The notes under the pieces: model-generated | Told to the model about the DNA's origin: nothing | What the model saw: the letters and a program-made list of their open reading frames with translations, nothing else | Databases searched by the model: none | Source of the DNA: Candidatus Binatia bacterium | Lineage (GTDB): Bacteria; Desulfobacterota; Binatia; HRBIN30 | Direction of reading: 5' to 3' | DNA length: 60,818 nucleotides | Assembly: GCA_038245295.1 (NCBI GenBank) | Contig: JBBRSP010000035.1 | Span: 1 to 60,818, forward strand | Part shown: positions 7,581 to 13,593 of the stretch, one piece after another | How the letters are laid out: every line of letters starts with the position of its first letter | How positions within the stretch are numbered: position 1 is the stretch's first letter | Position numbers and translations under genes: made by a program

Positions 7581-7604
7581 CGCAGGCTGAAGCCTGCGCC
7601 TACC
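7581..7604 (-). repeat. GTAG-type REP overlapping the stop codon of the AAC(3)-family gene
   Basis: CGCAGGCTGAAGCCTGCGCCTACC. Confidence 0.8.
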
Positions 7605-8400
7605 TCCGCCGCGCCGCTTCACGCTTGCGGCCACAATTGACGCACTGCGGATCGTCGCAGGCGAAGAACCCCGGATCTCCCTCCAGGGCTTGGGTGGCAA
7701 GGTTGACGAGGTAACGGATCGACACCTTGCGCGCTTCTCCATTTGGCAGTGCCACACGTTTGACCTGCGTCGGGTTCCACAACGACTCGAGACGATCGAA
7801 GGCGCGGCTGCAACCAGGGAAGTTCTCGACGACAACGCGTTCTTCGTAGCCACCGGCGTTGATGCGCAGCGCCGTGGTGCGACCCAGGTAGCGCACCGTC
7901 GCTTGCTCTTCGGCGAGGTGAATCGCGGTGACGCTCGACAGCGGTGTTTCCATCGTCAGCATGTGACCCATCATGACGTTCAGCTTCTTGAGCGGCCCGA
8001 GCGGATTGTTGTCGCGGTGGGTGGCCAGGACATCGCGCGCGGCGCGGCCCCAGGCTGCGAACGAGTGTGTCGGATGCTGGCTGCGGAGGACCCCGGGAAG
8101 CCGCCGGAATGCCTCTGGGATGGGCCCGAGCGTCGGCGTTACCGGCAGGTCGGTATGAAAAGCCACCGGGCGGGAGCGCGGCGGTGTACCCGGCGTGACC
8201 GGCCGGCTGATCGTTTCCTCTTGTGTGAACGTCGGCATCACCAGCGTGCCATTCTCGCCGATCGACTCCATGAGGGCTTGGCAAACGGCCAACGCGCCGC
8301 CTTCCATCGGTTCGACACTGGCCATCGAGGCGTGCACGACGATGTGGTTGCTGCGTAAGGCCAGCGGTTCGAGAAGTTGTCGCAGCTCGGCGCGCGTCAT
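7600..8400 (-). CDS. AAC(3)/Antibiotic_NAT family N-acetyltransferase
   Basis: VVHAS, GTLVMPTF, G.IPE.FR, RSQHPTHSFAAWG, HLAE and C-terminal CxxxxCxxC. Confidence 0.85.
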   Translation of the reverse strand: MTRAELRQLLEPLALRSNHIVVHASMASVEPMEGGALAVCQALMESIGENGTLVMPTFTQEETISRPVTPGTPPRSRPVAFHTDLPVTPTLGPIPEAFRRLPGVLRSQHPTHSFAAWGRAARDVLATHRDNNPLGPLKKLNVMMGHMLTMETPLSSVTAIHLAEEQATVRYLGRTTALRINAGGYEERVVVENFPGCSRAFDRLESLWNPTQVKRVALPNGEARKVSIRYLVNLATQALEGDPGFFACDDPQCVNCGRKREAARRR

Positions 8401-11364: not shown

Positions 11365-11410
11365 AGCCGCGCGCGCTGCCGCGGTCCAATCACCGGAGTC
11401 CGGCGCAGCG

Positions 11411-11473
11411 GGTAGGCGCAAGCTTCAGCTTGCGGCCGCAGAGCAGCCGGTAGGCGCAAGCTTTAGCTTGCGG
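11411..11473 (+). repeat. Tandem pair of GTAG-type REPs
   Basis: GGTAGGCGCAAGCTTCAGCTTGCGG (11411-11435) and GGTAGGCGCAAGCTTTAGCTTGCGG (11449-11473), with compensatory stem changes relative to 165-189. Confidence 0.8.
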
Positions 11474-11528
11474 AGTTGCCGCCTCGCCTGCGCGCTGATT
11501 TATAGTAAAACCCCCACGAGGCCTGAGT

Positions 11529-13094
11529 ATGCAAATCCACGAACCCGCACCCACGACCTTCTCCTACGACGCCTGGAGCCGATTGCTCGGCGACATCGTG
11601 ACGCCGGACGGCAAGATCAACTACGAGCGGCTCGATCAACAACGCGACGGTCTGGAAACCTTCGTGGCGCAACTGGGTGCCGTCAGCCCAACCTCCCATC
11701 CTCAGCTGTTCGCCAGTGACGAGGATCGTCTCGCCTACTGGATCAACGCATACAACGCGTTCACCTTGCACGCGATCATGGCCGAGTACCCGATCAGCTC
11801 GGTGTGGAAGACGCGCGACGGTCAATTCTTCGAGCGCCCACGCCACATCGCCGGCGGCACGCCGCTGAGCCTCAACGACATTGAGCACACGATCCTCCGC
11901 GGCCAGTATGCCGAGCCGCGCATTCACTTCGCCATCAACTGCGGCTCGAACGGCTGTCCCGCTGTCCGTCCGACGGCTTACGAAGGTGCCGGGTTACGCG
12001 ACACCCTGCGGGTCGCAACCGAAGAGTTTCTCGCCAGCACGTGGAACTGCCGCGTCGACCATGACGCCAAGCGCATTTTCATCTCTCGGCTCTTCAAGAT
12101 GTATGCGGAAGATTTCGCCGGGGTGCAGAACTCGACCGATGCTTACCGCGAAGGAGTGTTGCGCTTTGTGACGCAGCATACCGGTCTCACGTTCGAGGCG
12201 ATTCACGACTACGAGGTCATCTATAACACCTACGACTGGGGCCTGAACGACGCAAACCGCGCACCGCATCTCGGTCCGATCCTGTTCCACGAGCCCGTCG
12301 AACACTACCTCGAAGGCGACACGCAACTGCGTGAACTGCATCTCTACGAGGGCAACTTCTGCAACCGCACCTGTGATTGGTGCACCATCCACGGCTCGCC
12401 CGAGGGCTGGTATCGCAACTACTCGCGCGACGTGCTCGACAACGCATTTGCCAGCGTCGCCGTCGATGGCAACGTCAAGTTCTACGGCGGCGAGCCGACG
12501 CTGCATCACCAGGCGATCATCGACGCCATGCAGTACCTGCGCGGCAAAGGGTTTCGCGGTCTCTATACGATTTTCTCCAACGGCGTGAAGGCCGATCGCC
12601 TGCTCGAGATCCTCGACAGCGACGAGCGCTCGGAGGCCGTGCTCAACTATTCCATCTACCACGGCCGCGACGCCGAGCCACTACCGGCGCATGCTCAGCA
12701 ACGCCTCGAGGACTGGGCGCGAGTCCATCCGAATCGAATCTTCCAGGGCTACAAGATCCTCTTCCACGCCGGAGCGGGAGCCGAACGGGTCTACGATCGC
12801 GATCGCGAGGCCGACTTTCACGGCCTGGGAAATGGCTGTGTGCGCTGCTTCCCGGTGCTGACGAGCAAAGGCCAGTTCCACGCCTGCCCGTTTGCCGCCG
12901 AGATCGACGCGCCGCACTTCGACCTTGGTCGGGTTGGTTCGAAGCCGGAGACTGTTTTCGAGAACTACCGGCGCTTCCGAACCTGGGTCGACGAGACCCT
13001 CGACCCAACCGCGCGCGCCCGCGGTCTCAGCAGTTGCGAGATGTGCCACAAGCATCTCGCCGAGATGCCGGCGGCTGAGTTTCAGCGTGAGTAA
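11529..13094 (+). CDS. DUF547 - radical SAM fusion protein
   Basis: N half has WINAYNA, RIHFAINCGS..CP and YDWGLN (DUF547). C half has CNRTCDWC, YGGEPT, SNG and a Cys-rich tail CVRC/HACP/CEMC. Confidence 0.8.
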   Translation: MQIHEPAPTTFSYDAWSRLLGDIVTPDGKINYERLDQQRDGLETFVAQLGAVSPTSHPQLFASDEDRLAYWINAYNAFTLHAIMAEYPISSVWKTRDGQFFERPRHIAGGTPLSLNDIEHTILRGQYAEPRIHFAINCGSNGCPAVRPTAYEGAGLRDTLRVATEEFLASTWNCRVDHDAKRIFISRLFKMYAEDFAGVQNSTDAYREGVLRFVTQHTGLTFEAIHDYEVIYNTYDWGLNDANRAPHLGPILFHEPVEHYLEGDTQLRELHLYEGNFCNRTCDWCTIHGSPEGWYRNYSRDVLDNAFASVAVDGNVKFYGGEPTLHHQAIIDAMQYLRGKGFRGLYTIFSNGVKADRLLEILDSDERSEAVLNYSIYHGRDAEPLPAHAQQRLEDWARVHPNRIFQGYKILFHAGAGAERVYDRDREADFHGLGNGCVRCFPVLTSKGQFHACPFAAEIDAPHFDLGRVGSKPETVFENYRRFRTWVDETLDPTARARGLSSCEMCHKHLAEMPAAEFQRE

Positions 13095-13271
13095 ACGAAC
13101 GCCTCGGAGCGGCGCTTCCGTGCCGGTTCTTTGCCACAGATGAATACAGATAAACACAGCCCGGCCGATGGCCAACCAACTCAGGCCAACCAGCCCTACC
13201 TCCGTCATTCCGGCGAAAGCCGGAATCTCCCGAGCATTCCGCAGTTTCCAATCGAGGAGATCCCGGCTTTC

Positions 13272-13593
13272 GAGTGTGTCGATTTACTCGGAAACCAAAT
13301 TTGAAACCGAGCAGACCTTTCCGTCATACCGGCGAAAGAGACTGTCGATTTTCTCTGATTCATCGTTGAAACGGCGCAAACACCTCCGTCATACCGGCGA
13401 AAGCCGGTATCTCCCCATCATTTTTGGCCTTCCACTCGAGGAGATCCCGGCTTTCGCCGGGATGACGTTGCTTCATTTCACTTTATCGACAGTCTCGAAA
13501 GCCGGTACCTCGCCAGCTTCGAGGCTTCCAGCAGGGGGAGATCCCGGTTTTCACCGGGATGATGTTGCTCCACTTTGGTTTTACGACAGTCTC
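13272..13593 (+). mobile_element. MITE family B, outer (older) copy
   Basis: Degenerate TIRs GAGTGTGTCGAT / TACGACAGTCTC. TTTC direct repeats at 13268-13271 and 13594-13597. Length is 159 bp once the inner insert plus its TSD is removed. Confidence 0.75.
13338..13496 (+). mobile_element. MITE family B, inner copy (159 bp)
   Basis: Perfect 12-bp TIRs GAGACTGTCGAT / ATCGACAGTCTC. GAAA direct repeats at 13334-13337 and 13497-13500. Internal CGTC-REP doublet. Confidence 0.85.

Follow-up and report, generated by a model that had tools for sequence, protein, structure and literature searches.

The gene considered here is on the forward strand of contig JBBRSP010000035.1 from a Candidatus Binatia bacterium, the whole 60,818 nucleotides analysed being referred to as the window. 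It occupies positions 11529..13094 as one open frame of 521 amino acids. The initial annotation described it as an uninterrupted ORF joining a DUF547 domain, without signal peptide, to a radical SAM enzyme, and no internal stop is present. In order, and all on the forward strand, it encodes a DUF547 domain (residues ~10-241; 11556..12251), an inter-domain segment (residues 242-266; 12252..12326), a radical SAM core (12327..12818) and a Twitch-like C-terminal region (12819..13058). Immediately 3′, at 13096..13135 on the same strand, is a predicted terminator-like hairpin with a short T run (-15.5 kcal/mol). REP-like palindromic repeats are present on both sides of the gene (window 11406-11480 and 13196-13470), with ~150-220 BLAST matches of at least 22 nt per query on 33-42 contigs of the same genome. 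It is flanked by a divergent gene for a glycogen branching enzyme and, beyond the repeats, by a cytidylate-kinase-like gene; no arsenic gene, nor any of the TIGR04282/TIGR04283 cassette discussed below, is within ~10 kb of it in the window. At 7600-8400 on the reverse strand is an AAC(3)-family acetyltransferase-like gene which is below all NCBIfam resistance cut-offs, and a gene similar to it is near relatives at loci L172, L174 and L233.

Is the fusion genuine? A search among proteins of similar length gave 1323 matches among 8000 scored candidates, and the figures here are from the best 120 of these 1323. Those 120 are 69-79% identical to the fusion across almost the entire length, and as 120/120 have both the DUF547 and the radical SAM motifs in one chain, the fusion is real and conserved, and no assembly artefact. 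The annotation had wished to know whether homologues are ever fused, and this provides the answer; with respect to a stop or frameshift between the domains, a Logan contig covering 11300-13203 is identical to the window, though the run may be the window's own source and so is not independent; no RNA data set is listed among those with the sequence. By the source labels of the listed matches, the homologues are from Candidatus Binatia, Thermoanaerobaculia/Multivorans and Rokubacteria. The Pfam PF04784 (DUF547) match, to residues 63-168, is well above its cut-off (E 6.6e-28, 97.7 bits vs 27) and the conserved Cys motif of DUF547 is present. The Pfam Radical_SAM match, to residues 276-362, has 26.8 bits, slightly below the 29.5 cut-off, and both motifs of the superfamily, CxxxCxxC and GGEP, are present. 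No NCBIfam family matches the protein at its own cut-off, and TIGR04167, the ArsS family, is missing from the nine weak matches at E 0.1. Literature on DUF547 (titles and the start of abstracts), on the TIGR and DUF identifiers, and on Binatia with radical SAM and arsenic, subscription papers and supplements being outside the scope, yielded nothing on the fusion family.

The DUF547 half aligns with stand-alone DUF547 proteins, which are also common in plants, and is modelled with a pLDDT of 95.8. Its C138-x4-C143 motif (CGSNGC-P; 11940..11957, forward strand) is in 79/79 fused sequences, and its cysteines are in 60 and 61 of the 61 rows of a mixed DUF547 alignment. A third cysteine, C174 (12048..12050, same strand), is specific to the fusion, being present in 77/79 fused sequences and, in the mixed alignment, in 13/13 fused rows vs 0/48 stand-alone ones. 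A hydrophobic N-terminus occurs in 45/51 stand-alone DUF547 proteins vs 1/120 of the listed fused homologues, in agreement with the annotated absence of a signal peptide. For the DUF547 fold there was no Foldseek match at E 0.001, the best VIA Z was 5.6, and there was no clear PDB sequence match; this does not show that the fold is new. The inter-domain segment is conserved to the same degree as both domains, its mean identity being 0.72 vs 0.69 for DUF547 and 0.77 for radical SAM. When the two halves were folded as separate chains the contact score was 0.59 vs 0.01 for the best control, with at least 90% of contacts common to the runs and a partner pLDDT of at least 88. The pass mark used is reached by 116/157 solved pairs and by 2/215 mismatched pairs; among those passing, scores of no more than 0.60 are those of 18 solved pairs and of both mismatched ones, and 0.59, obtained here with halves of one gene, is in the range where passes are often wrong. 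The prediction lends weak support to a fixed contact between the domains. In view of the two invariant cysteines, the third found in the fusion only and this weakly supported interface, DUF547 may be, as the annotation had proposed, a substrate binder or redox partner of the radical SAM half. Separately, other radical SAM types (weakly ArsS-like, or TrsS/Tes-like) adjoin stand-alone DUF547 at L024:11481-12425, L025, L032 and L051, which suggests that several radical SAM families pair with DUF547.

In the other half, CxxxCxxC is at 12360-12383, as annotated, and GGEP, also noted previously, is at 12486-12497; the core is delimited by these motifs, Pfam and the predicted fold. An AlphaFold model of the fusion protein has a pLDDT of 86 and a pTM of 0.84, and the partial TIM-barrel in it matches radical SAM structures with Z up to 13.1. 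EpeE, a peptide epimerase, ranks first among them (Z 13.1, rmsd 3.9, 226 aligned); the Twitch dehydrogenase BtrN also matches (Z 12.6, rmsd 4.0, 188 aligned). The C-terminal extension with its conserved cysteines, and a structural alignment to BtrN/EpeE/anSME that reaches residues 509-514, point to membership of the SPASM/Twitch group. The ESM Atlas returned only generic radical SAM clusters, many of them viral, and DUF547 clusters. All 11 cysteines of the protein are conserved, namely C138, C143, C174, the CxxxCxxC triad, C437, C440, C453, C503 and C506. The last five form the Cys-rich tail to which the annotation drew attention, and are invariant in 79/79 fused and in 54/54 mixed fused and stand-alone sequences. 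As the ligands of a Twitch cluster are four cysteines, as in BtrN, the region, whose fold is matched over model residues ~262-514, is predicted to have an auxiliary [4Fe-4S] site and one spare thiol. Selenocysteine in the radical SAM enzyme was considered and rejected, the flagged TGA being the normal stop. Judged by sequence, the radical SAM half is not ArsS: profile similarity is confined to 78 N-terminal columns, the SAM-binding start, where the alignment ends, and the C..DCDFNQ..CxxCTAGxGSSC region of the ArsS C-terminus is absent from it.

Stand-alone relatives of the radical SAM half are ~270-310 amino acids long, 40-50% identical to it, and have the same eight cysteines. In a quick unrooted tree of 69 rows the fused copies cluster together amid stand-alone copies, and acidobacterial fused copies are nested within those of Binatia, which suggests a single fusion event with later transfer. 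No plasmid-borne relative of the stand-alone enzyme was found. What of gene neighbourhood? Fused homologues are in many unrelated settings and, with the neighbours in the window uninformative, local operon context was set aside as a guide to function. Also set aside, each being restricted to one lineage, were the bufferin/ferritin/encapsulin/thiC and the TonB/rhodanese/AhpD neighbours. In the lineage with loci L131, L133, L136, L143 and L201, the fusion is between thiC, which it precedes, and a ferritin-like/encapsulin gene, which it often overlaps by one base; further upstream is a bufferin (BufA/BufB) cluster. Elsewhere, beside fused homologues at L003:9565-10647 and L002:9640-10824, the genes for an AhpD-related (seleno)protein and an AhpC/TSA redoxin each consist of two consecutive ORFs, a split possibly due to selenocysteine UGA.

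Both TIGR04282 and TIGR04283 are within 6 kb at 10/95 fused loci, and neither at 85/95, the 95 including some genomes fetched twice. Nine of the ten are in one clade, with a divergent TIGR04282-TIGR04283 fusion, and that of G050 is separate. In an armatimonadotal genome, G376, that has no ArsS, the unfused enzyme is beside DUF547 (identified by motif and BLAST), TIGR04283 and TIGR04282; the phylum to which G315 belongs, Armatimonadota, has the stand-alone enzyme in 1/131 genomes. With the unfused enzyme sharing a cassette with DUF547, the Rosetta-stone reading of the fusion holds. The annotation had also linked DUF547 with ArsS/glycosyltransferase clusters, and this too holds: in addition to this cassette, DUF547 is near ArsS at 6 of the 16 ArsS loci listed. 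In Binatia, among the loci listed, ArsS has TVP38, FAD oxidoreductase and DUF547 on its flanks, and usually adjoins an ArsM-like gene. In Thermoanaerobaculia-class genomes without ArsS (L267-L279), TIGR04283 is repeatedly next to a gene that by eye is MoaC-like, and often also to a MobA-like one, away from any cassette.

The own-class survey involved 201 Binatia genomes. The fusion enzyme is in 22 of them (19 confirmed full fusions and 3 cut by contig ends), TIGR04283 in 182, and TIGR04167 (ArsS) matches in 155, or 152 when three weak ones (G084, G195 and G131; E 1e-13 to 1e-18) are set aside. In G084 and G195 the match spans no more than the first, generic half of the TIGR04167 model, and that in G131, at a contig end, may be a true ArsS fragment. 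The 182 genomes with TIGR04283 comprise 149 with ArsS only, 21 with the fusion only, 1 with both and 11 with neither; of the 19 without TIGR04283, 0 have the fusion. As kin genomes are not independent, a Fisher value overstates the exclusion; within the five carrier families 12.7 overlaps would be expected and 1 was observed; counting two weak carrier matches as ArsS makes the overlap 3/22. At least 90% completeness characterises 17/22 carriers. Even within a genus, g24, there is a clean split of 2 genomes with the fusion and 3 with ArsS, and g53 is also split between them. The fusion and ArsS are nearly mutually exclusive, a relationship the annotation did not foresee. Among the 111 genomes of the class to which G201 belongs, 16/16 carriers, probably one lineage, have TIGR04283 and 2/16 have ArsS, and among its non-carrier TIGR04283 genomes ArsS is in 27/67 (27/66 without the unpublished G208). 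In that class 40/83 TIGR04283 genomes have neither enzyme, showing that TIGR04283 is not invariably dependent on the one or the other. Rokubacteria, where 4/131 genomes have the fusion and 15/131 ArsS with no overlap, provide too few to weigh, and one of the four carriers has no TIGR04283 match.

TIGR04282 was present in 5/5 carriers tested and in the genome of the window, and the fusion, like ArsS, co-occurs with TIGR04282, TIGR04283 and DUF547. The genome of the window has TIGR04282, TIGR04283 and TVP38 with an oxidoreductase, and a CDP-alcohol transferase in it adjoins a second DUF547. It is without ArsS, its best TIGR04167 score being 28 bits at other loci (cut-off 300). It is probable that the fusion enzyme fills the slot of ArsS; displacement of the one gene by the other is well supported, and the chemistry is unproven. 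As a separate matter, that TIGR04283 (182/201) and ArsS (152/201) are near-core in Binatia is unexpected for arsenosugar-synthesis labels, and the ‘arsenosugar’ names of TIGR04282 and TIGR04283 are database labels for which the literature yielded no paper testing them.

What chemistry would suit that slot? According to the accessible text of PMC13598754, PMC12159101 and bioRxiv 10.64898/2026.04.29.721666, ArsS adds the 5'-deoxyadenosyl radical of SAM to DMA(III), yielding DDMAA. An ArsM-type methyltransferase was found in 115/201 Binatia genomes, 102/152 of those with ArsS vs 6/21 of those with the fusion only, and not in the genome of the window, all of these being lower bounds with only 9-11 candidates scored per genome. 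On this basis the fusion probably acts on something other than home-made DMA(III). The reading we favour, though tentatively, is that the fusion is a second C-As bond-forming adenosylase, replacing ArsS in the TIGR04282/TIGR04283 pathway, with DUF547 passing it trivalent arsenic on cysteines; conservation of the fusion, its near exclusion with ArsS, its co-occurrence with TIGR04283 and the repeated transferase adjacency argue for it. Counting against it are the scarcity of ArsM, the short stretch of ArsS profile similarity, closest folds that are those of a peptide epimerase and a sugar dehydrogenase, the lack of cassette genes near the fusion in the window and at 85/95 fused loci, the G201-class genomes with TIGR04283 but neither enzyme, and the Rokubacteria carrier without a TIGR04283 match. 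C278, C282 and C285 would bind the SAM-cleaving cluster and, by analogy to Twitch enzymes, four of the five tail cysteines the auxiliary one, leaving the fifth as an arsenic-holding thiol comparable to those in the ArsL tail. DUF547, normally exported, would have been recruited to the cytoplasm, where C138, C143 and C174 may collect As(III), MMA(III) or DMA(III), or keep it reduced, and then hand it over, so that the cell would depend less on an ArsM of its own. The 5'-deoxyadenosyl radical would be joined to the trivalent arsenic species and the arsenic-adenosine product passed to TIGR04282, a CofC-like nucleotidyltransferase, and TIGR04283, a GT2 enzyme. A bolder and doubtful proposal is that this is a new radical SAM family, beyond the shared core unrelated to ArsS and ArsL, that builds organoarsenic ribosides without a methyltransferase, the three-Cys site of DUF547 feeding arsenite or scavenged methylarsenite to the adenosyl radical.

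Depletion of ArsM in carriers would also suit salvage, with the fusion feeding the same transferases but acting on an imported arsenosugar or 5'-substituted riboside by H-abstraction, oxidation or cleavage, like BtrN, to which its fold is close, and with ArsS and ArsM needless. Stand-alone copies resembling cyanobacterial proteins are directly after a YnjB-type ABC importer at 20/32 unfused or truncated loci, and an APH-family kinase is near the stand-alone enzyme at 14/32. Of five annotated YnjB regions, one has DUF547, FAD oxidoreductase and CDP-alcohol transferase, another TVP38, FAD oxidoreductase and CDP-alcohol transferase, that of E. coli DedA, AhpD-like and CDP-alcohol genes, one the CDP-alcohol transferase only, and one none of these. 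However, the genome of the window has no YnjB or APH homologue, none is near the 95 fused loci, and the G376 enzyme is with the transferases and not a transporter, and salvage seems unlikely. In their own right, the metagenomic, cyanobacteria-like contigs L107-L128 have a conserved operon in which the stand-alone enzyme is accompanied by an APH-family kinase and a YnjB-type ABC transporter; this is a candidate pathway of uptake and modification, from which the substrate of YnjBCD may be learnt.

Alternatively, with the fusion still in the ArsS slot, does the pathway in these bacteria handle another chalcogen or metalloid, or a sugar or lipid head group, arsenic being a side substrate of ArsS? 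The near-core distribution of TIGR04283 and ArsS, for a supposed detoxification trait, with ArsM found in fewer genomes, prompts the thought, as does the listing, in the accessible text of PMC13188914, of TIGR04167 as a selenoprotein family, the last tail Cys, in GxxC, being GxxU in selenoprotein forms. Against this, ArsS in Binatia is usually beside the ArsM-like gene, and its activity on DMA(III) is published (as cited in the parts available of PMC13598754 and PMC12159101); we consider the idea improbable. Finally, with a peptide epimerase as the best fold match, and bufferin (8/95 loci) and ferritin/encapsulin and thiC (22/95) nearby in one lineage, the fusion could be a peptide- or cofactor-modifying SPASM/Twitch enzyme unrelated to the cassette, with DUF547 as its module for binding; ArsS would then be excluded through a lineage effect. 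As the exclusion recurs in five families and within single genera, adjacency to TIGR04282 and TIGR04283 came about in three or more separate branches, and no other lineage has the bufferin and thiC neighbours, this is very improbable.

If the bolder proposal, of a family independent of methyltransferases, is correct, DUF547 would have its first function, that of a thiol metalloid carrier, and most Binatia would make arsenic-containing sugars or lipids. Few enzymes are known for radical C-As bond formation, ArsS and ArsL being those in the literature found, and if a further family takes the place of ArsS across phyla, arsenosugars and arsenolipids would have more known sources among the bacteria of soils, sediments and sponges. 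A simple assay of this single soluble protein would test at once the role of DUF547 and the product of the TIGR04282/TIGR04283 pathway.

How, then, does the fusion compare with known systems? Fused and stand-alone DUF547 (PF04784) are 33-40% identical over the full domain, and the W-x-N-A-Y-N, RxHFAxNC and CP motifs are retained; however, the stand-alone proteins are mostly exported (45/51) and without C174, whereas the fused form, from its absent leader, is predicted to be cytoplasmic. The Twitch enzymes BtrN, EpeE, SpeY and BlsE share with the fusion the fold predicted for its residues ~262-514 (Z 10-13) and the GxxxxC and CxxC tail pattern, yet they are only 13-17% identical to it, none has DUF547, and the fusion has one extra invariant cysteine; for their substrates, aminocyclitols, peptides and nucleosides, the gene context of the fusion offers no support. 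With ArsS the fusion has in common a compact radical SAM domain, CxxxCxxC, five conserved tail cysteines, the partners TIGR04282, TIGR04283 and DUF547, and the genomic slot. They differ in the tail, C..GxxxxC..CxxC..C in ArsS vs CxxC..GxxxxC..CxxC in the fusion, and the fusion has no TIGR04167 match at E 0.1, is joined to DUF547 and is mostly without ArsM. ArsL, the arsinothricin C-As enzyme, which by the accessible text of bioRxiv 10.64898/2026.04.29.721666 holds arsenic through three C-terminal cysteines, is a precedent for a second radical SAM family making C-As bonds from As(III) on such cysteines; ArsL differs in its CCxxC tail and in transferring an aminocarboxypropyl group, and the fusion has no CC motif.
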